From positions 51,988 to 115,987 of IMG/VR virus record IMGVR_UViG_3300005323_000037: a DNA stretch of 64,000 bases. One strand, given 5' to 3'. Position numbers and translations under genes: made by a program. The notes under the pieces were generated by a model. It was not told where the DNA came from and ran no database searches. It worked only from the letters and a program-made list of their open reading frames with translations. This stretch comes from a virus. Lineage: Duplodnaviria; Heunggongvirae; Uroviricota; Caudoviricetes. This document shows, in pieces, positions 3,029 to 60,321 of this stretch (position 1 is the stretch's first letter; every line of letters begins with the position of its first letter).

Positions 3029-3051
3029 GACATGCTCGACGATTGCTCCCT

Positions 3052-5017: not shown

Positions 5018-5165
5018 ACTTTTCTCCTGCTAATTATTATACCATACTTAGACTAAAATGTCAATAGACGTTGCAATGACATTACATAATAAAACGCGTA
5101 TATTAGCACTCTCGTGTCCTATACGCGTTTGCTGAACTGATATTTCAGATGATTAATCTGATAGA

Positions 5166-7452: not shown

Positions 7453-7657
7453 TGTTTGATTCTCCAGCCAAGCGCTCATTGAGGAAGGCATGATTGATAT
7501 GCTGAATGATATCGTAAGCCGCACACTCAATCAGATTGACGCCATCAATGATGGTAGCTTCACCGAATAAGCGCGGTAGCTTGTCCATGATTAGCATTAA
7601 GTGTATCTGATTAGTATCAGAGAATTCTTGCAGCATATTATCTTCACTCATGCTCAT
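7445..7657 (-). CDS. Hypothetical 70-aa protein between the two glycosyltransferase genes
   Basis: Short ORF with ATG start overlapping neighbours by a few nt. No motif. Confidence 0.25.
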   Translation of the reverse strand: MSMSEDNMLQEFSDTNQIHLMLIMDKLPRLFGEATIIDGVNLIECAAYDIIQHINHAFLNERLAGESNNA

Positions 7658-8858
7658 TCACCTCGACTGGCTTATCCGATTCAATCATCTCTGTAGACTT
7701 GCTCGCTTCAACAGTAGGCTTAGCATCCCAATTGATAAAGTACAGTCCAGGCAGCACGCCATGATCGGCACGAAAGTCATTGATGATCTGACTGTATACT
7801 GACTTTACATAATCTAACTGATTATCAATGAATAAGCTTTGAAAGTATGGTATACCACGCGTTGCTAGCTCATTCTCACTGACCAGATTATCCAAAGTGT
7901 CCATAATGGCTTTAGCCCAATTGTCGGTACCGTCACGGACTAGCTTGCCGAATTTAGAGAACTCTTCATACGGCTCACCGTAGGAGCCAATCCAAGGAAT
8001 ACCAGCCAGTCCATACTCCAACCCCTTGATCCATGACCTGCGCTGATCGTATGGGCCATAGAGAGGCGCTACACCAATATCAAACATGCTAACTACTTTA
8101 GGCCACTCGTTAGGCGATACACCGGGCTGCATGCGCTTCTGGTCAATTGGTACAGGTAGCTGCTCAAATATCCTTGGATCATTACCACAGATTACCCAGA
8201 TTACCTCTGGATGATTGCGACTGATAATTGTAGCAGCGTCACGTAGTCCTGATCCCCACCAGGAATCATAATGACTGACAGAGCCACCCCAGCCGATTAG
8301 AATGCGATCACTCAAGCCTAGCTCAGCCTTACGAGCAGTCCTGTCCGACATTTCTTGCCACCACTCGCGCCTAGCATAATTTGGCACATAGTACCCGTTT
8401 GTGATATACTTCCAATCAGCTAACAGTAACCGATTGGGAGAAATCAACCCATCGCTGACTGACAGTCCACGGCACAGCATCTGCAATGGCGGTGTAGGCA
8501 GCTTAGCCGAATTGCGATGCCAGAAGTTATGCGCTGGATTAGATGAGGGCAGCATCTGATAGGCGTCATCTAGGTCTACTACAGTTGGCTTACCTCTGCC
8601 TTGCCAATAGCGCACACCATCAACCATTTGATCGCTGAGCAGATTGCGCTGAAAGATTACTATATCGGCATCACTGATCCATTTCTGTACATCGGGCGAC
8701 ATGTAGTGCTCGAAACCGGATACATGAATGAGCTTAGCGTGCCAGTCAGCTTTCTTTTCAGCAGCAGCTTTATTCATCGCGTCGGCAAAGGCTAAGCAGC
8801 GCCATTCGGATGTATTCCATTCTAGTGCGCTATCAGCGTATACATAGACTACGTTCAA
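7644..8858 (-). CDS. GT-B glycosyltransferase (GT4/GT1-like)
   Basis: C-terminal DIGVAPLYGPYDQRRSWIKGLEYGLAGIPWIGS resembles the E-x7-E donor-binding motif region of GT4 enzymes. 404 aa. Confidence 0.45.
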   Translation of the reverse strand: MNVVYVYADSALEWNTSEWRCLAFADAMNKAAAEKKADWHAKLIHVSGFEHYMSPDVQKWISDADIVIFQRNLLSDQMVDGVRYWQGRGKPTVVDLDDAYQMLPSSNPAHNFWHRNSAKLPTPPLQMLCRGLSVSDGLISPNRLLLADWKYITNGYYVPNYARREWWQEMSDRTARKAELGLSDRILIGWGGSVSHYDSWWGSGLRDAATIISRNHPEVIWVICGNDPRIFEQLPVPIDQKRMQPGVSPNEWPKVVSMFDIGVAPLYGPYDQRRSWIKGLEYGLAGIPWIGSYGEPYEEFSKFGKLVRDGTDNWAKAIMDTLDNLVSENELATRGIPYFQSLFIDNQLDYVKSVYSQIINDFRADHGVLPGLYFINWDAKPTVEASKSTEMIESDKPVEVNEHE

Positions 8859-16698: not shown

Positions 16699-17502
16699 TT
16701 AGTTGGCTGATATATCAGATTGATCTATGATTAGCGGCTTACGTTTGGCCTTGCCGCGGATTGAGTAAGCATTGATTTTGCCAGTAGTAATCTTATTCCA
16801 TAGCTCATCATCGGGCACATAAGTAACAGTTACCCAAGAACCTTTTGTAATTAGATGGCCGTCGATACTAAAATCTACTGGTGCAATATAGGATTCTACA
16901 GCAACTGCCTTACCTTCTAGACCGATCACCTTATGCTGCTCGTCATATTGCTGCGACTTCATCATCCAGCGGTGCGCCATAGTTTCAATCTCGTCTGGAT
17001 TGATCCAATCATTTTGTGTGTCAGACCAGCCGAATGGTTTGGCTGGATAGGATACGCCATAGACTAAGCGCTTAGCGTCGCTACTCTTGAAGATAAAGCT
17101 AGACTCCGCACTCATACTAACTGGATCACCAGATACACGAGCAAGGGCGGCTAGCTCTTCAACGGCAAATGAGATGTATTCTTCACCAGAAGCGTCTTTA
17201 GCAAGAGATGTTTTGATACCAGCGGATTGCATGAGTGAGACTAGCTTGCGCCTAGCTACAGCCTTGGATTCTGGGCTGGACTGGACTTGATCTAGCCTAG
17301 CCGCTGCATTACGCAAGGCATTCTTATTGACTGGCCCACCTGGAGTAGACTTGACTGGTAGATGACATTTGGACTTTACTTTAGGAGTGTCGGTATTGTC
17401 ATCAATCAAGCAGACTGAGCAATAAGACTCTGCGGATAAGTCTGACTTAGGTGTATCCCAAGGTACGTCTGTAAAATTTACTTTACTAATATCTTCATCC
17501 AT
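16699..17502 (-). CDS. Putative prohead protease / head morphogenesis protein
   Basis: 267 aa, upstream of scaffold and capsid. Family assignment is uncertain. Confidence 0.25.
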   Translation of the reverse strand: MDEDISKVNFTDVPWDTPKSDLSAESYCSVCLIDDNTDTPKVKSKCHLPVKSTPGGPVNKNALRNAAARLDQVQSSPESKAVARRKLVSLMQSAGIKTSLAKDASGEEYISFAVEELAALARVSGDPVSMSAESSFIFKSSDAKRLVYGVSYPAKPFGWSDTQNDWINPDEIETMAHRWMMKSQQYDEQHKVIGLEGKAVAVESYIAPVDFSIDGHLITKGSWVTVTYVPDDELWNKITTGKINAYSIRGKAKRKPLIIDQSDISAN

Positions 17503-18205: not shown

Positions 18206-19195
18206 TTAGGAGATGTGAATTACTTCACGAATTGAATGCTTGCCAGAAACAAGATTCTCAAATGTAGCAGGCACATCTGCAAGTTGACTGATACCAGTGA
18301 TTAGCTTGTCGTAAGAACATTTGCACATGTTATCAATAACATCAAGAAAGTTATGCCTAGAAGCATTGCGTGCACCAATCAGAGTGAGCTCCTTGCGAAC
18401 TACATCATTCATGTCTACTGTAATTGGACCGGAGCTATAGCCCACACTAGCAATGCAACCTAAACGCTGCACTTTACTCATAGCTGTATCATAGACTTCC
18501 TGCGAGCCAGCGGCATCTATAACTATGTCGTAGCTGATGTTGCTGAGGCTCTTATTGTAAACCGTTACATCAAATAGATGATGTGCTAGATCAGTCTTGT
18601 ACACATTGTGATCTAGCACAGTAGTAGGAATACGATACGTGGTCAGATAATCAATACAACCTAAGCCTACTGCGCCGCAACCGATAACTAATACATTAGG
18701 CGCATGAGTGGGCAGTAGTCGATAGGCATTGATAGCGGCGCTGGCAGTATGATAACCAATGGCCAGAGGCTCAACTAGGGCAGCGGTATAGTAGCTACCC
18801 ATAATACCTGTAACATCTATAAGAATATCTCTAGGCAGATTGACGTATTCAACCATCAAGCCGTCGCGCTGTACACCAAAGGTTTGATTGAACTTGCATG
18901 AATTGGTATGACCATTGCTGCATGAAAAACATGGTACAGCCGCCTTGCGATCTAGACAGTTGGTGTATGGATAGACTGTTACAATACTACCATCAGACAG
19001 CTCACCTACCATCTCGTGGCCAAGAATGACTGGATACTTTACATTGGGAGAGGAGCCTGAGTAGGCTGCTAGATCGCTGCCGCAAATGCCAACATAGAGT
19101 ACTTTTACACGCTCTTCGCTTGGCTTAGGCAGGGGCGGTTCGGGAATGTCGATGACTTGAATGCTATGTGGAGATTGTAGTGAGACTGCTTTCAT
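18206..19195 (-). CDS. Zn-dependent medium-chain dehydrogenase/reductase (alcohol, polyol or alditol-phosphate dehydrogenase family)
   Basis: Motifs VGICGSDL (compare GxCGSDxH) and GHEMVGE (compare GHExxG), plus a Rossmann GxGxxG (VIGCGAVGLG). Start moved to ATG 19195 with a GAGGT RBS. Confidence 0.6.
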   Translation of the reverse strand: MKAVSLQSPHSIQVIDIPEPPLPKPSEERVKVLYVGICGSDLAAYSGSSPNVKYPVILGHEMVGELSDGSIVTVYPYTNCLDRKAAVPCFSCSNGHTNSCKFNQTFGVQRDGLMVEYVNLPRDILIDVTGIMGSYYTAALVEPLAIGYHTASAAINAYRLLPTHAPNVLVIGCGAVGLGCIDYLTTYRIPTTVLDHNVYKTDLAHHLFDVTVYNKSLSNISYDIVIDAAGSQEVYDTAMSKVQRLGCIASVGYSSGPITVDMNDVVRKELTLIGARNASRHNFLDVIDNMCKCSYDKLITGISQLADVPATFENLVSGKHSIREVIHIS

Positions 19196-19197
19196 TG

Positions 19198-19719
19198 CTA
19201 AATTACCTCTTTGCAAGTACAATACGCGGCAGGATCGCGCTCGACAGCAATCTTGATACCGCCCGTATTGAAACTAGATATCGGCTGCGGCAAGCGACTT
19301 ACTCCGCCGCATTTATAGCATAGATGCTCTCTGTACGTCACTCTTCCTATATCTACCGTGCGCTGCAAACAGCTTGCATCAATGCCCCAACGATGTAGGT
19401 TGCTATTGTATCCTGCCTTGATAACGATATAGATTACATCACCGTATTCGTGAAAATAGTAACGAGATAGTTTGATATACTCTACTCTAGTATTAATACA
19501 GGCAGCGTAAGTATCATCTTTTGAAACATATCTACTAAGATTATTATCATAAACTGGAACAGCAACCGTATCACTGTAAAGAACTGCATAGGGAAGAGTT
19601 ATTTTCTTCTGATCGTATATAGATAGAAATTCTGCCCTACCTATCGCCTTGATATTGCCATCGCTGTAGCCGAGTACGACAAAAGGAATTCTAGGCAGGT
19701 CTAGTAATTTATCAGTCAT
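19198..19719 (-). CDS. Hypothetical protein (C-terminal CxxC...CxC)
   Basis: Follows the dehydrogenase gene. Start moved to MTDKLL. Confidence 0.3.
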   Translation of the reverse strand: MTDKLLDLPRIPFVVLGYSDGNIKAIGRAEFLSIYDQKKITLPYAVLYSDTVAVPVYDNNLSRYVSKDDTYAACINTRVEYIKLSRYYFHEYGDVIYIVIKAGYNSNLHRWGIDASCLQRTVDIGRVTYREHLCYKCGGVSRLPQPISSFNTGGIKIAVERDPAAYCTCKEVI

Positions 19720-23714: not shown

Positions 23715-24860
23715 TCAAACAGCAAACGCCGGACACTCCGGTCTTACTTCGCCTAGCCCAAGAGAAAACGCCCCTTCTCTACGAATGTTGATAGCAGCGT
23801 TTCGGTCGCGATCATGGATGGTGCCACATGTTGCGCAGGCCCAACGACGCTCGGATAGTTGCAAGCCCTGATACACGTTTCCGCACACCGAGCATGTCTT
23901 GCTTGACGGGTAGAATCTGTCAATCAAGCGAACTATCTTGCCCTTGCCGTTGGCAACATGTCTGAGGATGCCCATGAACTCCGAGCGGGCCAAATCGCCG
24001 ACTTTGCGGCCCCACAGCCGCTGCATGCCCTTCATGCTCAGGTCCTCAAAGTACAGGTAGTCATACTGATCGGTGAGTGTGTGCGCTAGCTTGAAGAAAA
24101 AGTCTCGGCGCTTGTTTACTATTCTCTGGTGAATCCGCTCGACGACCCGTTTGGCCTTCTGCCAACCGTGCGAGAACTTAACCTTGCGGGCAAGATTCTG
24201 TTGCGCAAGCCTGAGCGCAGACATCGCCTGTTGAAGGTACAATGGCGACTCAATCACCGATCCATCATCAATGGTTAGAAACGTCTTCAAACCAAAATCA
24301 AAGCCTGCGCTATTACCCGTCATGGCTCGATTGCCTTGGTTCTCCGGTGCTTCAACCACGAAATATAGCCAGAGCGCGCCCAGGTTGTCGCGCTTTACCG
24401 TCAACGTCTTCACTTCGGCCGGGATGTCCCGGCTCCTGCTGAACTTGTACACCCGTCCTTGAATCTTGACTCGATTGCCATCAAGCAACTTCCAACCAGC
24501 CTGTTTGAGCGTGAAGCTGCTGTACTTCTTGACTTTCCTGAAGCCTGGTGGTGCAGTCTTGACGCCTGCTTTCAGATTGCGAAAGAACAGTGTGTACGAC
24601 CGCTCGATCCGCTGTACGATGTCCTGAATCGCCTGGGAACCGACTAGGTTCCAGAATGCATAGCTGGGCCGCTGCTTGAGTTTGGCAATGTGCGCCATCA
24701 AAGCGTATTGGTTCAGGTGCTTACCAGTCAGGTGATAGTAGCGGCGATGGAGCGCAACGCTGTGGTTCCAGATGATGCCAGCCACGTCGATCTGCTGGTT
24801 CAGGAACCTATTCCGCTTCGCCCGGTACAGCTTGAACTTGTACGTCTTGATGCCGTTCAT
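23715..24860 (-). CDS. tnpB: TnpB (IS605 OrfB; RuvC-like RNA-guided nuclease family)
   Basis: C-terminal zinc finger CSVCG...CATCG and a RuvC-like split domain. Start assigned to MNGIKTY, whose ATG overlaps the tnpA stop as ATGA. The track's longer 5' extension is rejected. Confidence 0.8.
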   Translation of the reverse strand: MNGIKTYKFKLYRAKRNRFLNQQIDVAGIIWNHSVALHRRYYHLTGKHLNQYALMAHIAKLKQRPSYAFWNLVGSQAIQDIVQRIERSYTLFFRNLKAGVKTAPPGFRKVKKYSSFTLKQAGWKLLDGNRVKIQGRVYKFSRSRDIPAEVKTLTVKRDNLGALWLYFVVEAPENQGNRAMTGNSAGFDFGLKTFLTIDDGSVIESPLYLQQAMSALRLAQQNLARKVKFSHGWQKAKRVVERIHQRIVNKRRDFFFKLAHTLTDQYDYLYFEDLSMKGMQRLWGRKVGDLARSEFMGILRHVANGKGKIVRLIDRFYPSSKTCSVCGNVYQGLQLSERRWACATCGTIHDRDRNAAINIRREGAFSLGLGEVRPECPAFAV

Positions 24861-25258
24861 TGGCCCTTTTGTCCCTCGATGTAGTGGCGAACGGTGTCTT
24901 CTGAAATATGCCCGATCGACTCGCAATAGTACAAGCGCGTCCACAGCGACGGCAACCGGGTCTTGAGCTTGGGAAACTCCGCCCGCAGCTCATGCGATGC
25001 ATAGCCCTTCAACTGTTGTACCAAGTAGTGCGGCGCGTGCACAGGTGACGCCCTGAGAAAGAGATGCACGTGATCCGGCATGACTTCCAACGTCTCCAGT
25101 GTACACCCCAACTCCTGAGCCTTGGCTTGCAGCAACCCCAACAAGCGTTCGGCTACGGCTCCGACCAAGACCTTGCGGCGATACTTGGGGCACCAAATCA
25201 GATGGTAGCCGGTGTTGTAAACAGCCTTGTGGCTAGTAGTCCATCTTGCATTTGTCAT
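24857..25258 (-). CDS. tnpA: TnpA (IS200/IS605 Y1 HuH transposase)
   Basis: 133 aa with HVHLF HuH motif and a C-terminal tyrosine region. Own promoter TTGACA-17-TAGATT upstream. Confidence 0.8.
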   Translation of the reverse strand: MTNARWTTSHKAVYNTGYHLIWCPKYRRKVLVGAVAERLLGLLQAKAQELGCTLETLEVMPDHVHLFLRASPVHAPHYLVQQLKGYASHELRAEFPKLKTRLPSLWTRLYYCESIGHISEDTVRHYIEGQKGQ

Positions 25259-25411: not shown

Positions 25412-25960
25412 CTATTCCTTCTTTGTACAAACAATCACAAATGGCTCCGCCACTGTATTGTTATGATATTGCGCTGCTCTGAGCGCCATGGTAATCCTAT
25501 CAGCAGGAGCAATATTAGCTCTATCAGTTGTGTACAATGATCCTAACGCTACGTCGTCACCAGCGCCCACCGCAACATAATTACAGCATAGCTCACCTAC
25601 CTGATAGTCACTATCAATGAAGAATAGGTGGCCATGAAAGCCAACTAAGAATGTGCCGGCTGAGTCTCTGCCATTATCAGTATACTGATAGCCGCCATCC
25701 TTGAAACAGGTACGTACCGCATTGATAAAGTCAGTTACCATAAACTTATTGACATCCACTGATTCATCATATACAGGTGGCTTGAGCGCATAGCGTAATA
25801 GTTGTCCCATGCGATACGATCCGGTAACGCCCATGATATAATCTTCATTACGAAACACTTTAGCATCAGCACGAATCTGAAGCGTAGAGTAAGATGTGCC
25901 AGCGGAATCGCCGCCTAGCCAGACGTCATTGTTATCAACGATGCCTATGATGCAAGTCAT
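25412..25960 (-). CDS. Proteasome/HslV-like Ntn-hydrolase family protein
   Basis: N-terminus M-TCIIGIVDNNDVWLGGDSAG with Thr at position 2 (the nucleophile after Met removal), followed by a GxxGxxG-like segment. 182 aa. Confidence 0.45.
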   Translation of the reverse strand: MTCIIGIVDNNDVWLGGDSAGTSYSTLQIRADAKVFRNEDYIMGVTGSYRMGQLLRYALKPPVYDESVDVNKFMVTDFINAVRTCFKDGGYQYTDNGRDSAGTFLVGFHGHLFFIDSDYQVGELCCNYVAVGAGDDVALGSLYTTDRANIAPADRITMALRAAQYHNNTVAEPFVIVCTKKE

Positions 25961-31387: not shown

Positions 31388-31413
31388 GTATACCTCTGTC
31401 TAAATTGATTCGA

Positions 31414-31497
31414 TAGGGCAGCTAGGACTCGAACCTAGATAGGATTGCTCCTGGCAATTCTTAAGATTGCTGCGTCTACCAGTTTCGCCACTACCCC
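31414..31497 (-). tRNA. tRNA-Leu (anticodon UAA), class II with long variable arm
   Basis: Manual fold: acceptor GGGGTAG/CTGCCCT (two G-U pairs), D-arm GCGAAACTGGTAGACGC, anticodon stem GCAAT/ATTGC with loop CTTAAGA, variable stem AGGA/TCCT, T-arm CTAGG-TTCGAGT-CCTAG, discriminator A. Confidence 0.8.
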
Positions 31498-31538
31498 ATA
31501 TACTAGCCAACCTACCTTGGCGGGCTAGTATTACTAAT

Positions 31539-32450
31539 TTATTGCTGCGCCCCAGGGATGGGCACGTATGTATTAGCGCTGCTGTCTGTATTGCTACCTA
31601 AGAACAATGTAATATCTGATCCCTGCGGAATGAAGTAGAGCTTATCGCGCTCGCCAATTACACCAGACAATAGCTCAAGCCGACGCAGCTCGTAGGCTTC
31701 AGGACTAATAGTGTATACCTTTGCTTGCTCTTCTGCCACCGCGTTATTGCGGCGAGCAATCTCTAACGCTACTTTAGTCTGCGCCTCTTCTTGCTTAACT
31801 TGTTCGGCCAGTTGCGCGGTGCGCTGCGTGGCGATTTCAACGTCAATTTTTACTTGTGCCTTGTCTTTCAACTTCTGCGCATAGGCAGGATCTGGTGTAA
31901 TGTTATTGATACCTACGTCTAGTAACTCAATACCAAATTCGCTTAGCTCAGGAGCTAGTAAATCAAACAATTCCTTTTGCACCTGTGCTCGACCAACACT
32001 AACATTACCATCACCAATACCCAGCATTTGATCTAGTGTATACTTAGTAGTGATCGCTTTGGCAACACGCGGTACACGATTAGCAACCTGGGTTTCAAGA
32101 GCGGCATCGTCACGCGCTTCAGCATTATAGGTCTGCCAGAGGGTGCGCGCTGATTCATCATCACCTTTACGTCGATAAGTAACACCAACCTCAAAGCCTA
32201 GCGGCTGCTTATCATTAGTCCATAGATCGGGATCGCTCCACTTGAGCGTCTTAGCTGAAGCGTCCATAACGACTAGCTGCGAGAACCACCCCATATTAGT
32301 ATAGCGACCAAACGTAACGACTTGACTAATTGAAACGCCGTCTCGCATAATCAAGCCCACTTCATTAGATTCAACGCGAGCATTCCAGTAGCAACCAGAT
32401 AGCAAAGTGCTAGTAACTAGTAAGATAGCGATTGATAGTGCCTTCTTCAT
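31539..32450 (-). CDS. SPFH/band-7 (stomatin/flotillin-like) lipoprotein
   Basis: Signal peptide with lipobox LLSGC, SPFH-like core, then a long Ala/Glu/Gln/Lys-rich coiled-coil region as in flotillins. Confidence 0.55.
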   Translation of the reverse strand: MKKALSIAILLVTSTLLSGCYWNARVESNEVGLIMRDGVSISQVVTFGRYTNMGWFSQLVVMDASAKTLKWSDPDLWTNDKQPLGFEVGVTYRRKGDDESARTLWQTYNAEARDDAALETQVANRVPRVAKAITTKYTLDQMLGIGDGNVSVGRAQVQKELFDLLAPELSEFGIELLDVGINNITPDPAYAQKLKDKAQVKIDVEIATQRTAQLAEQVKQEEAQTKVALEIARRNNAVAEEQAKVYTISPEAYELRRLELLSGVIGERDKLYFIPQGSDITLFLGSNTDSSANTYVPIPGAQQ

Positions 32451-33480: not shown

Positions 33481-33509
33481 TTTCGACCTCTCTATTGCTA
33501 GTAAAATAA

Positions 33510-33582
33510 TGAGACAGCCGAGATTTGAACTCGGATGAGCTTGCGCCCACTATAGCGCGTCTACCAGTTTCGCCACTGTCTC
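33510..33582 (-). tRNA. tRNA-like gene with non-canonical anticodon arm (4-bp GCGC stem with 8-nt loop, or 5-bp stem with 6-nt loop)
   Basis: Perfect 7-bp acceptor GAGACAG/CTGTCTC, D-arm identical to the tRNA-Leu D-arm, and T-arm CCGAG-TTCAAAT-CTCGG. The anticodon region GCGC-TATAGTGG-GCGC cannot form a 5-bp stem with a 7-nt loop. Confidence 0.5.
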
Positions 33583-33588
33583 AGCCAA

Positions 33589-33808: not shown

Positions 33809-33882
33809 TACTGAGGGCTGGACTCGAACCAGCAACCGCTGCGTTATAAGCACAGTGCTCTAACCATTGAGCTGCCTCAGCT
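33809..33882 (-). tRNA. tRNA with anticodon UAU (Ile-AUA type)
   Basis: Acceptor GCTGAGG/CCTCAGT, D-arm GCTC-AATGGTTA-GAGC, anticodon stem CTGTG/CGCAG with loop CTTATAA, T-arm GCTGG-TTCGAGT-CCAGC. Positions 8-9 are CA rather than UA. Confidence 0.65.
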
Positions 33883-35754: not shown

Positions 35755-35983
35755 ACCTGCCACCTCTGTAAGATTGAGCAAAAGTGTTCAAAATCCCGTA
35801 CTTCTAACCCAGTATACCACAAGTGTAGCGGCTAAGTCAAGAGGTTGGAATAAGTCGCAGAAAACTGATAACAATTGAGCGAGGAGTGTACTAGGAGTGA
35901 GAATACAAGAAGGCCCAATGCCTAAACTGCACACTGGGCCTCTTGCAGAGGAGGAGTAGAACATGAAATTCACTACTAGCCTT

Positions 35984-36013
35984 AGTATAGCACATTTAGT
36001 ATAGACTTGTCAA
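35984..36013 (-). promoter_or_regulatory. Sigma70-type promoter (TTGACA-18-TATACT), leftward; first of three tandem leftward promoters
   Basis: The reverse complement reads GTACTTGACAagtctatactaaatgtgcTATACT. Further copies at 36111-36140 (TTGACA-18-TATACT) and 36223-36252 (TTGACA-18-TACAAT). Confidence 0.5.
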
Positions 36014-36040
36014 GTACCTGGCTAAAGAGATAGATGTCTT

Positions 36041-36260
36041 ATAAACAGAAAGACCCAACGAGTGCGTATCTCATTGAGTCTCTCTGCTTCCGGTGACAAG
36101 GCCTAGCTTCAGTATAGTACACTTGCCGCATGCTTGTCAAATACCAGTATAAACAGAAGAGCCCAGTAAGTGCATACTCTACTGAGCTCGTCTGCCATAC
36201 GGTACGGTATAGACCTAACATCATTGTAGCATATCTACTGCCTGCTTGTCAATAGGCAAT
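36041..36260. repeat. Two tandem ~108-bp imperfect direct repeats, each carrying a leftward sigma70-type promoter
   Basis: Units start ATAAACAGAA(A/G)AG(A/C)CC at 36041 and 36149 and end at GC(A/C)TGCTTGTCAA. Confidence 0.5.
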
Positions 36261-36288
36261 ATAGAACATCTCTATTGACATAGCGCAG

Positions 36289-36374
36289 TGGGCGGAGAAA
36301 GATTTGAACTTTCGCAGGCACGAAGCCAACTGGGTTACAGCCAGCCCCCTTTGACCAAACTTGGGTATCCGCCC
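36289..36374 (-). tRNA. tRNA-Tyr (anticodon GUA), class II
   Basis: Acceptor GGGCGGA/TCCGCCC, anticodon stem GCTGG/CCAGT with loop CTGTAAC, long variable arm, T-arm GAAAG-TTCAAAT-CTTTC, discriminator A. Confidence 0.8.
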
Positions 36375-36464
36375 AATGAATATAGTATAGCATACTATGC
36401 TAGCTTTGTCAAGTAGTTCGATGACTATGCTAGGCCAACACTCACTCTTACCGCGATCTTATAC

Positions 36465-36534
36465 AATTATTACAGTAGCTATATAATTATAGTAACTGGG
36501 CAATTACAGTAACTGAACAATTATAGAGACTGAA
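36465..36534. repeat. Four tandem ~17-bp iterons CAATTA(T/C)AGTAACTG
   Basis: caattattacagtagct / ataattatagtaactggg / caattacagtaactgaa / caattatagagactgaa. Confidence 0.5.
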
Positions 36535-36637
36535 TAAGCATTGAGCATGGAAAAGCCCAGCCTTGGGTGACTGAGCCTTTCGCATAGAGGAATTAGGATA
36601 AATGATGAGGATAGCAACCATTTGACAGATCATAGTA

Positions 36638-36666
36638 ATTATAGCATAAGATTAAGCATTTGTCAA
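36638..36666 (-). promoter_or_regulatory. Consensus sigma70-type promoter (TTGACA-17-TATAAT), leftward toward the iterons and tRNA-Tyr
   Basis: The reverse complement reads TTGACAaatgcttaatcttatgcTATAAT. A 25-bp repeat of this promoter sits at 38593-38621. Confidence 0.55.
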
Positions 36667-36890
36667 GTAGGTTGTTTATTTTCATTAGTAATCTCATTTA
36701 GCAGCATTTGTTTGCGAGATTCTAATTCAGCCTTAGCTAGATCAACGGTCCAGTGCATCTGCCATTGACTTTTATATGTCATGTCATCGAATTGATTATA
36801 TTTAGCAGCGGCAACTATGCCAAGTCGATAAGCGGCATGAATGAGTTCATCAATACTATTCATCGCGTAACGATTTCCATACACTTGCAA
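36663..36890 (-). CDS. Hypothetical small protein
   Basis: 75-aa ORF. Confidence 0.25.
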   Translation of the reverse strand: MQVYGNRYAMNSIDELIHAAYRLGIVAAAKYNQFDDMTYKSQWQMHWTVDLAKAELESRKQMLLNEITNENKQPT

Positions 36891-37209
36891 TTACAGGCAG
36901 TGACTCAGTAAATACATCTACTTCATCAGCTAGCTCGCCGGCATCATAGATAGTGTGAATCTCTACTGATACATCATTGAACTTACGAATAACAGCTATG
37001 CGATTACTTGCTATGCGGAAGTAGGTATCTAGCTTAGAATTCTCTAGAACATCAATAGCTTCATCAATATAGTTGCTATCTATAAACAAATCTCCATCAT
37101 AAGAATCACTTGCGGCATAAACACTATTACGCTTGCTGACATAACAATTACATTCTCCATCCACTATAATACTATACAATCTGTTACATTCAGTAGTTTC
37201 TATTTTCAT
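36856..37209 (-). CDS. Hypothetical protein
   Basis: 117-aa ORF. Confidence 0.25.
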   Translation of the reverse strand: MKIETTECNRLYSIIVDGECNCYVSKRNSVYAASDSYDGDLFIDSNYIDEAIDVLENSKLDTYFRIASNRIAVIRKFNDVSVEIHTIYDAGELADEVDVFTESLPVIASVWKSLRDE

Positions 37210-37359
37210 TGCACTCTCCTATACTCATTATACCATACTATTCTAATAATGTAGCTAGTAATAATATTCACAAGTACATTACAATAATCAAACTAGCATA
37301 GTACAATGATTATCTGCGCGTCGAATAAGCTTACCGACTCATTTAGCAGCTTGAACTAA

Positions 37360-38463
37360 TTACTGAAGCGGCAACTGCTGAAAACTTTGCTTAGTAACGG
37401 CCTCAATATACCAATTAGTATCGGAATCCTTATGCTTGGCGGAATAGTTAGCGGCAAACTGATCAGCTTGTGCTTGTGAAATAAATCCTTTATCAACTAG
37501 ACTCGGCAAAACTATCCGTATATAACCTGTCCAATTAGTAACGGATAAGTTTCCAAAAACACGCACCTCGCCAACCTTGAAATTGACCTTCGCGCCGATC
37601 AGTTTATTCTCGTAGATGAAATTCCTCTGATTGATTAGTCGTTGCACATCTTCTGGCGTAGTCGGGTCATACGTCATTGTCTCGGCTAGTGTTTCGAGTT
37701 CGAGTAGGCTAGCAAGTGGCTTATCGGCTTCTTCCACTAAATACGAATGCGTACCAACCGTATAAGTATCGGCAGCCTTAGCTTCTTCAACTTGCTTGCC
37801 GAGCTGTCCGGAAGCATTTCTGCCATCAGGAGAATTCTGCAATGCAAACCAATCCATAATTTCAACAAGGCCACAATAAACATGTTCGCCAATTAGCTCA
37901 TCTGTACGGATGAACAAATACTCACTGCCATCTCTTTGTGGTAGGCGCAAGTAATTCTCTTTGCCTCTAGCCATTTCTACTAGCTTCTCAGCTTCTTCCA
38001 GCCCGCTCGCATGCACGCATCTGATATTCTTATTAGCAATCGCGGCGGACTCTACTCGCTTCATCAGCTTGAATGCGCGCCGGCCACCGCAGCTAGCATT
38101 GGGACATTCCTTGAGTCCACATTCCCAGGGATAGGATATTAACATGCCAGTATTAGGATTACGTCTCTGATGCCAGGTGCCACATTTATCGAGAGCCGCT
38201 TGTCGCTCAGCGCCAGTCAGCCGCCTACAGGATCGCTTAGGCTTGCTGTCTTCTTCCTCTTCGAGATCCATCAAGTGTTCTAGTCCAGTTTGTAGCGCGC
38301 CAACCATCAGCTTACGATAAGGAGTCTGCACAGGAGCACAATCATTATAACCTTGAGCAAACAGTTTATCATATTCGTCATTGCCGCATTCATCATAGTC
38401 TTCATCAAATAAATGACTTAAATCCCAAGCTGGACCAACGTTGAGTCTCTTTTGTATATCCAT
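37360..38463 (-). CDS. Hypothetical 367-aa protein with Cys-rich zinc-finger-like segment; candidate replication initiator
   Basis: Sits in the control region directly downstream of a consensus promoter and iterons. Cys cluster CGTWHQ...CGLKECPNASCGG. Contains the operator-like inverted repeat at 37508-37554. Confidence 0.3.
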   Translation of the reverse strand: MDIQKRLNVGPAWDLSHLFDEDYDECGNDEYDKLFAQGYNDCAPVQTPYRKLMVGALQTGLEHLMDLEEEEDSKPKRSCRRLTGAERQAALDKCGTWHQRRNPNTGMLISYPWECGLKECPNASCGGRRAFKLMKRVESAAIANKNIRCVHASGLEEAEKLVEMARGKENYLRLPQRDGSEYLFIRTDELIGEHVYCGLVEIMDWFALQNSPDGRNASGQLGKQVEEAKAADTYTVGTHSYLVEEADKPLASLLELETLAETMTYDPTTPEDVQRLINQRNFIYENKLIGAKVNFKVGEVRVFGNLSVTNWTGYIRIVLPSLVDKGFISQAQADQFAANYSAKHKDSDTNWYIEAVTKQSFQQLPLQ

Positions 38464-38592
38464 ATTTTATTTACCTCTGCTTATATGATTATTGTTGCTA
38501 TTACTATTATTGCTTGATTCTACCATGCATTTATCCTATCTGTCAAATACGACAATAAATATAATTACTAATCAACAGATCGCTATGCAGTT

Positions 38593-38621
38593 ATTATAGC
38601 ATAAGATTAGATATTTGTCAA
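38593..38621 (-). promoter_or_regulatory. Consensus sigma70-type promoter (TTGACA-17-TATAAT) driving ORF 37360-38463
   Basis: The reverse complement reads TTGACAaatatctaatcttatgcTATAAT. Confidence 0.55.
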
Positions 38622-38650
38622 TATCTAGTATCACTTACTACTGAAGATGG

Positions 38651-38760
38651 GTACTAAAGTACTTACAGCAAGTACTAAAGTACCGAGATGCAAGTACTAA
38701 AGTACCCTATTATTATGATAAATATTATAATAATCATAACAATTATAGTAATCATAATAA
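38651..38760. repeat. Three helically phased iterons GTACTAAAGTAC (period 21-22 bp) followed by a ~55-bp AT-rich element
   Basis: Copies at 38651, 38672 and 38694. AT-rich run aatattataataatcataacaattatagtaatcataataattatcac. Confidence 0.5.
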
Positions 38761-39786
38761 TTATCACAGTGCGGGCCAGCGGTAAGCATGGACAATCATT
38801 GGATTAATACAATCATTCAATCATTGGATGATTCATTAGTCTACTACAATAATTAGTAAGAAGTCAGCAGGTAAGCGATTTTTTATTCTACAATTTTGCA
38901 GAATTCAATTCGATGACCGCAGGCGGGTATTTATAAATGTATTGCTAGTGTAGTCTGTATGCTTAGATAGCAGATAAATCGACGTGTATGCTGTCAAGCG
39001 CATCAGTTGAGTGGGTACAAATAGTAGTGTGACATGTATGCATCAGTAGTAAATGAGTTAGTATAGCAGTGGATAAAATGATTAGGCAAGCATATAACAG
39101 GACAAATGAGCAAGAGTGTAGTAGAAGATAGAATAAGATAGTAATAGTAGCAGAGTAAAGAGTGAGCAATCAAAGAGAAGGTAAGCATGGCGGGGTAATA
39201 GAGTTAGTAAGAAGTGGGGTGGGAGAGAAAATTTGCATGCTATGCTCAGTAGGGTACCCCCTTGCAACTTTTCTTGTCTGCATAATATTTTCTTGTCAAT
39301 TCCATTCTCATTGTCAATCCATTATGCATTTGGCATACTAGCTCGACTTGCCGGCTTCGATCTCAGTTGTCAGATTGCACTGTCTATAGAAGCTGTAAGC
39401 TGCTAGTAGTCACTGCCGGCAATTGTTGCAAGATCATGCTCGAACCGATATATGAGCCTCGATGCTGGTGTAGGCCGGTATGACCCTGATAGAATGAGCA
39501 TAGAATGAGCATGGCATAGCAGAGTAGATCGGGGGTAGGATAGCAGCATGCAGGGCAAATGTGCAAGCCGGCAGGGTAGGCTGCAAGATTGAGCTGCATA
39601 AGCACACAAAAAGTTGCAGCCTATCAGTGATCTTGCCAACTCTTGTTGCTTCCATACTTGCACTGCAATTGTCATCGACAAGTATGCTAGTAATCCAGTC
39701 TGATATATCAGATTGTAGCAGTCCATATAATGACCGGTTCAGTCCAAAGCTGCCCTACCAGTTTTGACATTATGTAAAGTGAATGC

Positions 39787-39815
39787 TTGACTCCTCGTGC
39801 TGGAGGTGATAGTAT
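39787..39815 (+). promoter_or_regulatory. Sigma70-type promoter (TTGACT-17-TAGTAT), rightward, start of the plus-strand arm
   Basis: ttgactcctcgtgctggaggtgatagtat, about 110 nt upstream of ORF 39923. Confidence 0.5.
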
Positions 39816-39922
39816 GGAGTCACGGCAACGCACCGGCGTAGTCGAACACATGTTCGGATTAGGGACATTGTGCAATCCTTCACAATCGGATAATCCAACA
39901 AGGGGAAGGGAAGGGGATCATT

Positions 39923-40165
39923 ATGAATCAGGATGAATGGAAGACTATGCAAGCATCACATCGAAACGAGATCGAAGAACGCCTACGCGAAACGCGTAAC
40001 GCTGCACTTCACGCATTGAACGAGTATCGTTCGGCTTTGGCTGATGCAATCAAACGTTCCTACCCTGAAGACGATCATAGGATCAAACACTACGCAGAAT
40101 GCAGTATTCGTGCCAATCGTGCAATTGACGGGATCAAGCGATTGGATGGACGTAGGCACAACTAG
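39923..40165 (+). CDS. Hypothetical small basic helical protein
   Basis: 80-aa ORF, first gene of the rightward arm. Confidence 0.3.
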   Translation: MNQDEWKTMQASHRNEIEERLRETRNAALHALNEYRSALADAIKRSYPEDDHRIKHYAECSIRANRAIDGIKRLDGRRHN

Positions 40166-56279: not shown

Positions 56280-57565
56280 GGTAGGTAAACAACCCCATGC
56301 CTAAAGGCAGTGGGTTTGTCCCTGACGCTACACAGGTGACTCATTGACCCGTAGTGTAGTCGAGACGTTTGGCCGGTTTACTGCGGCCCTACTGGCAATA
56401 TTGCCAGCAGCGATGTGGTCAGCAAGCCCGGAGAAGCCGCAAACCACGCAGAGGAAAGTAGATTGATTACGACGATTGGCCTTAGCGATGTGACCACAAG
56501 CAGGACAGGTACGCGATGTGTTGCGTGGATCAACCGTAAACACGGGAATACCGCGCAACTTAGCTTTGTATTCGATAAAGCCGCGCAGTTGGGCGAACGA
56601 CCAGCTATGCAGGGTTGCCCTCCGAGACTTGCGAACCGTGACCCGCTGGCTAATGCCGCCGAGTTCTTCGATGGCAATCGCCCGCTTTGTGTCTACAGCC
56701 TTAGCAACCAAATGCTTCGAGATACCGTGATTGACCCACTTAGCAAAGCGGGCCTCCTTGCCAGCAAGTTTATGCAACCTGCGACGCGACGACTTCGTAC
56801 CCTTCCGCTGCAACTTGGCACGCAGGCGGCGATGGCGATGCCTGACATTGTTGACCTGGCTGGACGAATGAACTTCACCGTCAGAATCAACCGCGATATT
56901 GACGATGCCGAGATCAACACCCAACGCGCCCTCAATGTCAATTGGATCCGGTTCCTGCACTTCGCAGGTGGCCGACAGGTAGAAGTTGCCGCGGAAAAGG
57001 ATCAGGTCACTCTCGCCCTGCCGACTGGCGAGCAAGGCGCGTTGTCGCTCGCCACGGACGAATGGAATACGCGCGCGACCACTTGCTGTCCAGATCGAGA
57101 CTTCCGACTTGTCCACGTACCAATGCAAAATACGGTCATCGTAGGCCATGGCGCCGATTGGTTTGAAAGTGCGCTTGTGCTTATGATCCAATTTGTAGGC
57201 ATCAGCCACCTTTGCCAGCAGGCGTACCACGACCTGTGCTGTCAGGTCGAAGCGTTCCTTCAACTCGTAGTACAGGGCTTTATGCAAGTCGTACTGTCGC
57301 CATGTGTGCGTGTTCCAAGCGTAATCGCTCACGTATTGGCTGGCAGCATTGGTCTGTTGCAGCGTCAATTCGAGAGATTTGTGCTGTTCTGGTGTAGGAA
57401 GGAGCTTCACTTGCGCGCTCAGTTTCATAGTTCACAGTATAGCACGGGAGCGCGGAGTTGTCAAATCTTGATAATAGCAACATGAGCAATGTATCACAAG
57501 TCCGTACGCATGGCCCTACATGGCCAGCTCCTATCCCTCCCCACGGCTGAAGCCGGGGGTATCCT
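56280..57565 (-). mobile_element. Solo-TnpB insertion element (IS1341/IS605-OrfB type)
   Basis: GC-rich block. Subterminal hairpins (CTACAC...GTGTAG and CCCCATGCC...GGCAGTGGG) overlap the tnpB 3' end. GC-rich left-end GGCC palindrome near 57510-57530. No tnpA. Boundaries approximate. Confidence 0.6.
56328..57428 (-). CDS. tnpB: TnpB (RuvC-like RNA-guided nuclease family)
   Basis: 366 aa with zinc finger CPACG...CVVCG and a RuvC-like split motif. Plus-strand ORF 56415-57485 is its antisense artefact. Confidence 0.8.
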   Translation of the reverse strand: MKLSAQVKLLPTPEQHKSLELTLQQTNAASQYVSDYAWNTHTWRQYDLHKALYYELKERFDLTAQVVVRLLAKVADAYKLDHKHKRTFKPIGAMAYDDRILHWYVDKSEVSIWTASGRARIPFVRGERQRALLASRQGESDLILFRGNFYLSATCEVQEPDPIDIEGALGVDLGIVNIAVDSDGEVHSSSQVNNVRHRHRRLRAKLQRKGTKSSRRRLHKLAGKEARFAKWVNHGISKHLVAKAVDTKRAIAIEELGGISQRVTVRKSRRATLHSWSFAQLRGFIEYKAKLRGIPVFTVDPRNTSRTCPACGHIAKANRRNQSTFLCVVCGFSGLADHIAAGNIASRAAVNRPNVSTTLRVNESPV

Positions 57566-57847: not shown

Positions 57848-58750
57848 ATGATTCACTCGTATCCAAAAGTATATCAACTTGGACATAAAGCTATTTCTGG
57901 AATTTTAGATGGTCCAGTAGATGTAACTGAGAAAGTAGATGGCAGCCAATTTTCATTTGGCGTATTCAATGGTAAGCTGGAATGCCGCAGTCATAATAAG
58001 CAAATTGTTCTAGACGCACCAGAGAAAATGTTTGCAAGAGCGATCTTTACCTGTTATGAACTAGAGAAATTACTGTGCCCAGGCTGGACGTATCGCGGAG
58101 AATATCTGAACACTCCGCATCATAACGCTCTATGCTATGATCGCGTGCCGCCAAAGAATATTATTCTATTCGATATCATGACTGAAAATGTTGAATGCTA
58201 TTTGTCGTATAACGCCATGTACGAAGAGGCCAATCGTCTCGGCTTGTCAGTTGTGCCATTACTGTATAGTGGAGTGGTAGCAAGCAGGAGTGAATTGAGT
58301 AAGCTTCTCGATACTGTTAGTATTCTCGGCGGTCAGAAAATTGAAGGCGTAGTTATCAAGAACTACTCTATGCTTTCTCTGGACGACAAGATTGCCATGG
58401 CTAAAGTAGTGCGCGAGGATTTCAAAGAAGTCAACGCGACTAACTGGAAGGCGAACAATCCTGGTAAGCAGGATATTGTAGAGGAAATTGCTGCGCGCTA
58501 TGCTACACCGGCACGTTGGAAGAAAGCTATTCAACACTTGCGTGAAGATGGTTTGATTCAAGATGCGCCGCAGGACATTGGCAAGCTAATCAATGAAGTC
58601 AAGCGCGACGTGCTAGAAGAGGAATCTGAAGCGATTGCTAATATGCTGTTCAAGGAATTCTGGCCGCAGATTGCACGTAAACTGATTGCTGGTTTACCAG
58701 AATGGTATAAGGGCACGCTAGCAGATTATGCCTTTACTGATAAGGAGTAG
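57848..58750 (+). CDS. ATP-dependent RNA ligase-like nucleotidyltransferase (Rnl1-like motif I KxDGS)
   Basis: Motif I TEKVDGSQF, motif IV EGVVIK, motif V MAKVVREDFK. Confidence 0.55.
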   Translation: MIHSYPKVYQLGHKAISGILDGPVDVTEKVDGSQFSFGVFNGKLECRSHNKQIVLDAPEKMFARAIFTCYELEKLLCPGWTYRGEYLNTPHHNALCYDRVPPKNIILFDIMTENVECYLSYNAMYEEANRLGLSVVPLLYSGVVASRSELSKLLDTVSILGGQKIEGVVIKNYSMLSLDDKIAMAKVVREDFKEVNATNWKANNPGKQDIVEEIAARYATPARWKKAIQHLREDGLIQDAPQDIGKLINEVKRDVLEEESEAIANMLFKEFWPQIARKLIAGLPEWYKGTLADYAFTDKE

Positions 58751-58755
58751 CTACC

Positions 58756-60321
58756 ATGTTTCTACAAAGACTGCGCTTAGGGTTTGCGACCAATTCGTCA
58801 TCGAGTCACTCGCTCATCTGGATTCCAGGTAATACTAAATTCACAAGCGATCGCTTAGCATATGATGGTGGCTGGGGTTGGGATGAATTTGTTCTGGCCA
58901 CACCAAAAGCTAAAGCGTCATATCTGCTGTCGAATATCTACAATAACCTGCTTGGTATCATGAATGAAGATTATGCCAAAGCGGTTGTCGAGCACGTGTT
59001 AGCTAAGCAGATACATGTAAAAGTTGACTCAGACATGATTGGTTATGTCGATCATCAGTCAAGCATTATCTTGCCGCATAAGAGAGGGCGTTTCGGCGGA
59101 CGTCCTGATGTCGATATGGAATTCTTTACGAATGTATTTACTGAAATTGTGCAATCGCCAGATTATGTTATTATTGGCGGTAACGACAATAGTGATAATG
59201 AGTCACTTGATCCGATTAAGTGGGCTGGCGAGAAAGTAATCAGAACCGATGACGATAATATCTATAACTGGCTAGCCGAGCATAGCAACAGTAATCGTTC
59301 TTCTGTAAAGCAGGGCCGCTGGGGAGAGCGCTATAGTAAGGGCAGCTTCACCGCTCGCCGTGACGGCAGGTTCTGGACTATGTTCAATACTGTCAATGGA
59401 GCAAAGATTACTCTTACTACTAGCCCGGTCAGTGATAAGGATGCACGTGAAGCATATACTTATTCCACTGTACCAGAACTGATCGACCTAAAGATTACTG
59501 ACTTTTGCACTAAGGGATGTGAGTTCTGTTACGCCAACAGTAAGCATGACGGCAAGCACGCGTCCCTAGACAATGTTCGTTCCATTGTGTACGCTTTAGA
59601 TGATCTTGGTGTATTTGAAGTAACGCTTGGCGGAGGCGAGCCAACATTGCACCCAGATTTCTATAAGATTGTAAAGGAGTTCAATGATTACGGTATTGTG
59701 GTAAACTTTACCACTAATGATCACAGCTTCTTGAGCAAAGGCACCGATGCTAATGAGCGTGAGAAGAGAGAGATTATGAAGCTAGTAGGTGCAGTAGCTG
59801 TTACTGTGCGCAGCCTACGCGATTGCGAGCTGGCGCTTAGATTCAATGAGCGTTGCGGTGGATCGGTAGTATTCCAGATTCCAATGGGCACCGTATCGCG
59901 TAATGACTTTCATAATATTGGCGAGCTAGCCAGAGCATCCAAAATTCGTATGACATTACTGGGCTACAAGAATGTTGGACGCGGTGGCAGTTACAAGCCT
60001 ATTCCATATGACTGGTGGCTAGACGAGGTAGTTGAAACGTCTAAGTCTCAAGATAGCGATGATTACTGTTGGCTTAATAATGTTATCGGTATTGATACTA
60101 CTTTAGCTGCTCAGTATAAAGATAAGCTAGAGGCGCTTGGCGTGCCCGAGTATATGTATTACTTGCAGGAAGGCAACTTCTCGTGCGCAATTGACGCGGT
60201 GAATATGACTGTAGCTAAGTCGTCATATGATGGCGGTGCGCTTTCAATCAAACCGACTAGCAGATTGGTAGGTGTAGCAAATATGATCAAGAAACATTAT
60301 GCAACGTTTAGGGAGGCATAG
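58756..60321 (+). CDS. Radical SAM enzyme with ~240-aa N-terminal domain of unknown function
   Basis: CxxxCxxC cluster DFCTKGCEFCY near aa 245 and a GGGEPTLHP SAM-binding motif. Translationally coupled to the ligase gene. Confidence 0.65.
   Translation: MFLQRLRLGFATNSSSSHSLIWIPGNTKFTSDRLAYDGGWGWDEFVLATPKAKASYLLSNIYNNLLGIMNEDYAKAVVEHVLAKQIHVKVDSDMIGYVDHQSSIILPHKRGRFGGRPDVDMEFFTNVFTEIVQSPDYVIIGGNDNSDNESLDPIKWAGEKVIRTDDDNIYNWLAEHSNSNRSSVKQGRWGERYSKGSFTARRDGRFWTMFNTVNGAKITLTTSPVSDKDAREAYTYSTVPELIDLKITDFCTKGCEFCYANSKHDGKHASLDNVRSIVYALDDLGVFEVTLGGGEPTLHPDFYKIVKEFNDYGIVVNFTTNDHSFLSKGTDANEREKREIMKLVGAVAVTVRSLRDCELALRFNERCGGSVVFQIPMGTVSRNDFHNIGELARASKIRMTLLGYKNVGRGGSYKPIPYDWWLDEVVETSKSQDSDDYCWLNNVIGIDTTLAAQYKDKLEALGVPEYMYYLQEGNFSCAIDAVNMTVAKSSYDGGALSIKPTSRLVGVANMIKKHYATFREA

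Follow-up and report, generated by a model that had tools for sequence, protein, structure and literature searches.

A probable early transcription hub with promoter-terminator cassettes and a conserved dyad/AT-palindrome module in an uncultured tailed phage

In phage lambda, the operator OR is a tripartite operator placed between divergent promoters, and the replication origin, ori-lambda, consists of four dyad iterons and an AT-rich region, is bound by the O protein and lies inside the initiator gene. Another kind of repeated control element has been described in T4-type phages, in which cassettes composed of a strong sigma-70 promoter and a stem-loop terminator (promoter-early stem-loops, PeSLs) are concentrated among ORFan genes, and in which recombination between PeSLs leads to insertions, deletions and replacements in hyperplastic regions (Arbiol et al. 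2010, PMC2839356; Comeau et al. 2014, PMC4122927). Here we describe a region of about 4 kb (35780-39920) in a 64,000-nt stretch of tailed phage DNA (Caudoviricetes; positions 51,988 to 115,987 of IMG/VR record IMGVR_UViG_3300005323_000037), referred to below as the window. The region combines themes that are each known, namely cassettes of the PeSL kind, a tripartite array of dyads flanked by divergent early promoters, and an AT-rich palindrome. New are the lineage, the presence of a tRNA gene in such a cassette, the occurrence of the same dyad array in unrelated phages, and the family of open reading frame (ORF) 367, whose predicted fold lacks a known match. From the arrangement of the sequence we think it probable that this region is where the early transcription of this uncultured phage starts.

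The window consists of two divergent arms, with all genes on the minus strand to the left of ~38.5 kb and all genes on the plus strand to the right of ~39.9 kb, and the densest cluster of consensus promoters in the window is found where the two arms diverge. A consensus scan revealed eight leftward sigma-70 sites with at least 11 of 12 matches between positions 35984 and 38621. In the whole window there were 13 such sites, compared with a mean of 1.98 and a maximum of 6 in 100 Markov shuffles; one of the 13 was on the plus strand, and none served the rightward arm. The pattern TTGACA-N16-18-TAYAMT occurred 10 times (0.17 expected), six of the occurrences being located between 35984 and 38621, all on the minus strand. 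Taking into account that the arms diverge here, that the consensus promoters are densest here and that these promoters are conserved in a related phage (see below), the early transcription switch that had been proposed for this region in the original prediction is well supported.

The related phage is represented by a 10.6-kb contig (L012), which was recovered by a metagenome scan with ORF367 relatives and is 76-93% identical to the window at the nucleotide level over the aligned blocks. As a rough neutral benchmark we used the third codon positions of ORF367, which are 76% identical between the two phages, the ORF367 protein being 94% identical. All six leftward promoters that fall within the part retained in L012 were kept, namely P1, P2 and the equivalents of the promoters ending at 36666, 36252, 36013 and 35840. 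P1 (38593-38621, minus strand, 12/12) and P2 (38517-38546, minus strand, 11/12; region 37/37 identical in L012) were both found by the consensus scan, carry an extended -10 (TGn) motif, and are located in tandem ahead of ORF367 (37360-38463, minus strand), the first early gene.

In the explanation that we favour on the whole, with better than even confidence, host sigma-70 RNA polymerase would start leftward at the tandem extended -10 promoters P1 and P2 and transcribe ORF367. Downstream of ORF367 there would follow a 'hyperplastic' string of six self-contained cassettes with their own consensus promoters, five of them ending in a hairpin/U-run terminator. Two cassettes would be loaded (one with ORF117 and ORF66, the other with a tRNA-Tyr gene), and four would be empty, yielding hairpin-terminated RNAs of ~60-85 nt. 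The repeated promoters would serve as substrates for homologous recombination, by which cassettes could be added or removed. Rightward transcription would begin ~690 bp away at a weaker, conserved promoter at 39311, possibly also at 39787. In the central module between the divergent promoters, a dimeric protein, most likely a host factor of the LexA type (N4-spaced dyad), would bind cooperatively beside easily opened DNA; the module would most likely control early transcription and may also act as a replication origin.

The four empty cassettes are all oriented leftward. Cassette 1 (35895-36013) has its promoter at 35984-36013 and, at 35904-35947, a hairpin with a U-rich tail (-29.3 kcal/mol, z = -3.6; identical in L012), and would produce a short transcript. 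Cassettes 2 (36025-36140; promoter 36111-36140, hairpin 36043-36089 with U-rich tail, fold z = -5.0) and 3 (36148-36252; promoter 36223-36252, hairpin ~36159-36189 with U-rich tail, fold z = -5.5) constitute the two arms of a direct repeat. Cassette 4 (36535-36666) has a 12/12 promoter (36638-36666), whose -35 element overlaps the stop codon of ORF66, and a hairpin followed by UUUU (36547-36585; fold z = -2.3), which was also flagged by a terminator scan; the predicted transcript is ~85 nt long. Thus, within 20-50 nt downstream of all four promoters (36013, 36140, 36252 and 36666) there is a hairpin of -24 to -34 kcal/mol with a U-rich tail. The four hairpins have a common outline (GRGCYCAGT...loop...ACTGGGCYC-UUYU), and their G·U pairs arise only in the leftward transcript. 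In comparison with L012, the unit-2 hairpin shows two compensatory pairs (G-C to A-U and A-U to G-C), and in the unit-4 hairpin the loop has diverged and the stem has been kept. Because the promoters are followed by long hairpins with U-rich tails, the units were interpreted as modules of promoter, short RNA and terminator; promoters and hairpins are visible as such, and their activity is presumed.

All features listed previously were recovered and are well in excess of chance, some of them in a modified form. Three tandem leftward promoters of the form TTGACA-N18-TATAYT had been predicted at 35984-36252; they are present, but the third carries TACAAT. The 108-bp direct repeats are real (78 identities in 109 columns, score 45 compared with a shuffle maximum of 23), but they are diverged and ~105 bp long (36040-36140 and 36148-36252), and the third unit shares the promoter alone. 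The near identity of the promoters at 36638-36666 and 38593-38621 was confirmed, the repeat on which they are built being 33 nt long and 88% identical. Four leftward promoters can be added to the earlier list: P2, that of the tRNA gene (36384-36412), one at 35811-35840 and, at 37227-37235, an extended -10 element. The promoter at 35811-35840 (minus strand, TTGACT-18-TATACT with TGn, 10/12) precedes the next leftward ORF (Shine-Dalgarno sequence and ATG near 35766) and is kept in L012 at 3035-3064.

The tRNA cassette (36288-36412, minus strand) consists of a promoter (36384-36412, TTGACA-17-TATACT, TGn) and the tRNA-Tyr gene with anticodon GTA (36288-36374), which had been noticed earlier and was now called by ARAGORN and by Rfam (RF00005, 55.1 bits compared with a gathering threshold of 29). 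In the other loaded cassette (36663-37235, minus strand), the extended -10 element TGGTATAAT (37227-37235) precedes ORF117 (36856-37209) and ORF66/75 (36663-36890), neither of which had a family match. Between the tRNA cassette and cassette 4 there are four 17-bp tandem repeats with the core AATTAYAGTAACTG (36465-36536). They had been described as four iterons (36465-36534); three units are good, the first copy is degenerate, and we interpret the array as a tandem repeat of variable copy number and not as part of an origin.

The contig L012 differs from the window in this part by four indels. It lacks the ORF117/ORF66 block (36676-37256, 580 bp), the tRNA-Tyr gene with its promoter (~148 bp), exactly one promoter-to-promoter unit (112 bp, the promoter of unit 3 being fused to the body of unit 2), and exactly one unit of the 17-bp repeat. 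Three of the four, i.e. the ORF117/66 block, the tRNA-Tyr cassette and the empty unit, are bounded by promoter units, as judged from the one relative compared. From these sequence comparisons we are fairly confident that the repeats at 35984-36666 are promoter/terminator cassettes gained and lost by recombination, and the repeats at 35984-36252, which had been proposed as parts of an origin, are read in this way instead.

By analogy, the cassettes appear to be the same kind of element as the PeSLs, in a new lineage. In both cases repeated promoter plus stem-loop units are found among small ORFan genes, and indels between close relatives begin and end at the units, here in the comparison with L012. 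They differ in that the PeSL hairpin overlaps the promoter, whereas here the hairpin is located 20-50 nt past the start site, so that an empty unit would make a short RNA, and in that here one cassette carries a tRNA gene. If this interpretation is true, PeSL-like modules and recombinational gene shuffling extend beyond the T4-type myoviruses to an unrelated, uncultured lineage and can carry tRNA genes, which would be useful for understanding the evolution of accessory regions in phages. For a group of hosts that has been little studied, the consensus promoters could serve as a source of strong promoters and terminators for immediate use.

The short transcripts expected from the empty units could be taken to mean that the four units are genes for small regulatory RNAs of ~60-85 nt and not leftover or spare cassette junctions. 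The units are built as is usual for bacterial small RNAs, the consensus promoter being followed by a short 5' segment that is single-stranded and then by a terminator hairpin ending in a U tail, the leader of unit 1 contains CUCCUCCUC, which resembles an anti-Shine-Dalgarno sequence, and unit 1 is nearly identical in L012 save for a 7-nt indel close to the 5' end. In contrast, the leader of unit 2 is poorly kept in L012, one whole unit is dispensable there, the Rfam search gave no match to the units, and no target was identified. We therefore regard the small-RNA interpretation as rather improbable. Even at E <= 5, Rfam returned tRNAs only; a large structured RNA in the 1-kb spacer, which was also considered, is therefore unsupported.

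Between P1 and the conserved rightward promoter (39311-39339) there are ~690 bp in which no credible ORF was found. Close to P1 this spacer contains a 116-bp module. Its first part consists of three exact copies of the dyad GTACTAAAGTAC (38651-38705; starts at 38651, 38672 and 38694, i.e. 21 and 22 bp apart), the centres of which are approximately at -70, -92 and -114 from the start site of P1. The second part is an AT-rich imperfect palindrome (38707-38766; 88% A+T), within which the segments 38709-38719 and 38751-38761 form a perfect inverted repeat of 11 bp. Both components had been predicted, the dyads as three phased iterons and the palindrome as an AT-rich run near them, and both were confirmed: GTACTAAAGTAC occurs nowhere else in the window, and of all 60-mers in the 64 kb the AT tract has the lowest GC content. 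Folding of the module as single-stranded DNA gave z = -6.3. In L012 the dyad bases are identical at 36 of 36 positions, compared with differences at 5 of the 20 other positions of the 56-bp block, and a 52-bp core of the AT tract is identical at 52 of 52 positions; the non-coding DNA around the module is only 40-51% alignable with L012. Since 52 consecutive identical bases at a neutral identity of 76% are very unlikely without selection (~0.76^52), the module was concluded to be functional.

As to its function, the module may act on transcription, as an operator or enhancer to which a LexA-type host factor binds, somewhat short of an even chance in our estimate, and a replication origin seems doubtful though worth serious consideration. 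The two interpretations are not mutually exclusive, and the rest of the weight falls to other roles, such as genome ends or packaging. The dyad plus AT-palindrome module offers a concrete and cheap target for finding a phage origin or a switch governed by a LexA-type host factor in organisms without a genetic system. The array is similar to lambda OR in that three dyad sites, ~21-24 bp apart from centre to centre, are located between divergently transcribed early genes. It differs from OR in that the sites are 30-85 bp upstream of the -35 element of P1, not over promoters, and in that no repressor gene was identified in this window.

The interpretation as a LexA-type operator is suggested by the sequence of the dyads. 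All three, with their flanks, fit RGTACNNNDGTWCB on both strands and are the sole matches in the window (6 strand-hits compared with 0.67 expected). This pattern is the LexA box defined for Nostoc and may not be the motif of the host of this phage; the sites match the cyanobacterial consensus, AGTACWNWTGTACT, except at one or two positions (PMC3091678). Dyads of this N4-spaced type have been reported from Firmicutes and Actinobacteria, and variants of them from Cyanobacteria and Chloroflexi (PMC4951493), and in phage GIL01 host LexA is described as acting at several SOS boxes in P1, an early promoter of that phage (PMC4551915). Multiple adjacent boxes in a phage early control region are common to GIL01 and to the locus described here, whereas in our case the boxes are clear of recognised promoters.

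When IMG/VR was scanned for two GTACTAAAGTAC-type 12-mers 8-12 bp apart, two contigs were found, L013 and L014, both with the array in intergenic control DNA. In L014 (9059-9171 and ~9360) there are five identical GTACTAAAGTAC 12-mers and one variant with one mismatch, with a 24-bp phase over three consecutive boxes. In L013 (8981-9015) two 12-mers with a 21-bp phase are located in a 1.6-kb divergent non-coding region, which also has a consensus promoter and C-rich repeats. Neither contig had a tblastx match to the window or to the other at E <= 0.1. Because the site is common to otherwise unrelated phages, the dyads are most simply explained as being read by a host protein. The divergent region of L013 also contains the cumulative G-C minimum of that locus.

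Several observations weigh against the explanation outlined above. Of the four hairpins, a simple terminator scan picked up the fourth only, so that the assignment of the other three as terminators depends on the folds and on the comparison with the relative, and this comparison covers a single sister genome (L012). The closest described cassettes belong to T4-type phages, and this phage is not a T4-type myovirus. The dyads overlap no recognised promoter, being located at -65 to -120 relative to P1, with the rightward promoter ~600 bp distant. Such a position is unusual for a repressor of the LexA type; it would be more in keeping with an activator, with a repressor that acts by looping or with a factor binding an origin than with a classical repressor. 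The match to the LexA box was recognised after the fact; for the identity of the host, the similarity of a TnpB protein to proteins in metagenome-assembled genomes (MAGs) of Chloroflexota (61-69% identity) is the sole hint.

The original prediction also regarded the locus as a theta-type origin with an adjacent initiator, ORF367. The protein is predicted to have an acidic, disordered N-terminal tail (residues 1-76, pI 4.2), a basic segment with a Cys4 zinc-ribbon (residues 77-145, pI 10.1) and an alpha/beta core. Its earlier description as a zinc-finger protein fits the four cysteines (94, 115, 120 and 125), which are invariant in 100 relatives. The only other columns of the 100-sequence alignment with at least 83% conservation are R129, Y171, P175, W205, S218, G219, T262, P267, R280 and W311. 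HUH rolling-circle Rep and AEP primase were considered for ORF367, but neither the HUH plus Tyr residues nor an acidic DxD triad is conserved in the alignment. One member of the family had a sub-threshold match to Rep_1 (E = 0.0018), and the top Foldseek match of ORF367, RepB' primase, was not significant (E = 0.16). Pfam, NCBIfam, PHROGs and PDB yielded no match to ORF367 or its 100 relatives, and none of the fold matches of the predicted model was significant, initiators included. The proposed check, whether ORF367 is homologous to a non-replication family, was therefore uninformative: no family was matched, replication or other.

ORF367 represents an undescribed Cys4 zinc-ribbon family of ~300 clusters, known from metagenomes only. 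Tblastn against INPHARED and scans of IMG/VR for relatives found none, and a profile search with a word-indexed database yielded three proteins only. The fold is confidently predicted and without a known match, and ORF367 marks a sizeable uncharacterised protein family with a new predicted fold. Two relatives, in L215 (9617-14189) and L006 (1420-4300), are located 0.1-1.8 kb upstream of a gene for a DinG-like helicase (PF13307). The relative in L215 is also flanked by a homologue of Acb5 (anti-CBASS) and by a DnaJ-domain protein. No iterons or AT-rich elements were found beside the relatives on the contigs carrying them, and no over-represented intergenic motif was found in contigs with ORF367 homologues.

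According to the origin model, the dyads would be iterons, the AT palindrome the unwinding element of a theta-type (lambda-like) origin, ORF367 the initiator, and the promoters a source of transcriptional activation. The repeats and the AT element are present, and the cumulative G-C skew of the window reaches its minimum at 38767, where the AT tract ends distally; a minimum elsewhere, which the original prediction had named as a refutation, was not observed within these 64 kb. From -0.15 over 38464-38766 the skew changes to +0.17 over 38767-39000 and +0.38 over 39001-39310, with the change of sign in non-coding DNA. The AT element is not only the poorest in GC but also palindromic, foldable as a single strand and perfectly conserved, and ORF367 has a basic zinc-ribbon segment. 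The layout is similar to that of ori-lambda, in that phased dyad repeats abut an AT-rich, easily melted tract with its own inverted repeats and strong transcription is nearby. The position of the two ORF367 relatives upstream of the helicase, in spite of only 35% mutual identity, also speaks for this model.

Against these points, the skew is inseparable from gene orientation, because a counter-oriented gene that could serve as a control is missing from the window (the plus-strand ORFs at 1-2800 are low-complexity artefacts), and the high skew at 39001-39230 reflects a polypurine tract. ORF367 is without initiator relatives: it is unrelated to the O, P, DnaA or Rep families, and the conserved HUH or DxD-type residues are absent from its alignment. 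The homologues have no iterons or AT elements beside them, and one of them, on an 84-kb contig, is located in a co-directional gene array. Identical dyad arrays are found in phages without an ORF367 relative in the fetched DNA. Scanning of ~50 window proteins revealed no recognisable replication gene, and DnaA boxes were not enriched (23 one-mismatch sites compared with 17.6 expected, one of them in the region). In contrast to ori-lambda, the element is intergenic, has three repeats only, and has the same repeats as unrelated phages. Taking both sides into account, the origin with its adjacent initiator remains only suggestive, and we consider the complete model somewhat improbable. A bolder version, to which we give little credence, is that ORF367 founds a new class of zinc-ribbon proteins that bind origins or recruit helicases, that the GTAC-dyad plus AT-palindrome module is a lambda-like origin opened or primed with the help of the purine-rich tract and the promoters, and that this type of module is common to unrelated phages of one host lineage.

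The polypurine (plus strand)/polypyrimidine (minus strand) tract is non-coding, ~230 bp long (39001-39230) and has a GC skew of up to +0.38. In L012 its composition is retained, with a sequence identity of ~49%. C-rich or G-rich tracts also adjoin the GTAC boxes in the unrelated contigs L013 and L014.

The size of the non-coding stretch, 1.1 kb, raises the question whether it contains the genome ends or a packaging site (cos, pac or terminal repeat); signals for terminase or end processing would then be provided by the repeats and the palindrome. The size of this non-coding region, its conserved blocks and palindromes and its position where two arms meet would fit such a role, and the comparable region of L013 abuts an arm with a terminase gene. 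Five independent metagenome contigs, however, run through the region unbroken, as would not be expected of fixed ends, the large ORFs nearby in the window included no recognised terminase gene, and the strongest early promoters flank the stretch, which is a better fit to a control region. This makes genome ends highly improbable, and an early control region is retained as the preferred interpretation.

On the rightward side, the consensus scan added to the earlier list a promoter at 39311-39339 (plus strand, TTGTCA-17-CATACT with TGn). The counterpart in L012, at the aligned place, is TTGACA-17-CATACT with TGn, the spacer having diverged. The rightward promoter noticed earlier at 39787 (39787-39815, plus strand, TTGACT-17-TAGTAT) is present, but with 9/12 matches and TGn it is less supported than that at 39311-39339, and it is located past the end of L012. 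Between the two is a conserved non-coding block (39587-39779), 91% identical in L012 compared with ~76% for neutral positions, which contains the palindrome CTGATATATCAG (39700-39711). An ORF at 39403-39726 (minus strand) was rejected as a gene, as it spans a block replaced by unrelated sequence in L012. CTGATATATCAG is present in the window in three exact copies and one with one mismatch (39700-39711, 16707-16718, 1284-1295 and 5137-5148), compared with 0.34 expected. Three of the copies are located ~50-85 bp upstream of promoters (P39787, P16656 and P5064), and the copy at 39700 is kept in L012. CTGATATATCAG is possibly an activator site.

The first rightward ORF (39923-40165) is preceded, just upstream, by CGGATAATCCA (39887-39897, plus strand), the first, imperfect copy of a near-palindrome, TTGGATAATCCAAA (core TGGATAATCCA). 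This motif is the most over-represented 10-mer of the window, with 39 strand-hits at no more than one mismatch, compared with 1.5 expected. The hits correspond to 22 places, of which all but one are in the rightward arm (21, between 39887 and 61502); 18 of these 21 have the same orientation. The motif precedes ~17 rightward genes and is usually separated by 3-40 nt from the Shine-Dalgarno sequence and start codon that follow it (e.g. at 41565, 42346, 42574, 43014, 43799, 44898, 46907, 48707, 49479, 51212, 54541 and 61490). The rightward arm is without a near-consensus sigma-70 promoter for rightward transcription, and TTGGATAATCCAAA is a candidate for a phage-specific (middle or late) promoter, an operator or an RNA-processing site. 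Scanning IMG/VR for TTGGATAATCCAAA gave chance matches only (118 single matches and two contigs with two copies), and a literature search for the motifs returned nothing relevant. That ORF367 could be the factor reading TTGGATAATCCAAA was considered and is without comparative support, as the homologue contigs showed no over-represented intergenic motif. One near-consensus promoter within the rightward arm (57436-57464, minus strand, TTGACA-17-TATACT with TGn) is directed leftward and is antisense inside the ORF at 56415-57485.

The window had no nucleotide match in INPHARED by megablast, and four metagenome contigs (L001-L004) were 99.9-100% identical to it. Its left arm encodes a head protease and a major head protein belonging to phrog_1005, a family present mainly in ~60-kb phages, which indicates that the phage is not T4-like. 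The major head protein is ~30% identical to those of RDJL Phi 1, KPP23 and several Arthrobacter phages (~60-kb phages). The left arm also contains a tnpB gene (23715-24944, minus strand; OrfB_IS605 and Cas12f1-like TNB domain), and the nearest relatives of the encoded protein, often present in multiple copies, are in Chloroflexota/Caldilineales MAGs. The host is thus possibly a member of the Chloroflexota.

In addition to tRNA-Tyr, the genes for tRNA-Ile (33809-33881) and tRNA-Leu (31412-31498) were found by both ARAGORN and Rfam. ARAGORN also reported a tRNA-like gene with a two-base anticodon 'ag' (tRNA-???) at 33509-33583 (minus strand), which was below the gathering threshold of Rfam. The plus-strand ORFs at 1-2840 are of low complexity (A/P/S/I-rich) and are apparently artefacts, antisense to a long gene on the minus strand that extends beyond position 1 of the window and is possibly of the tail tape-measure type. 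Other genes recognised in the leftward arm encode glycosyltransferase- and epimerase-like proteins (6214-8858, minus strand), a zinc-type alcohol dehydrogenase (18206-19222, minus strand), an HslV-like peptidase (25412-25960, minus strand) and an SPFH/Band-7 protein (31539-32450, minus strand), and in the rightward arm an RNA ligase gene adjoins a gene for a radical-SAM protein (57848-60321, plus strand).

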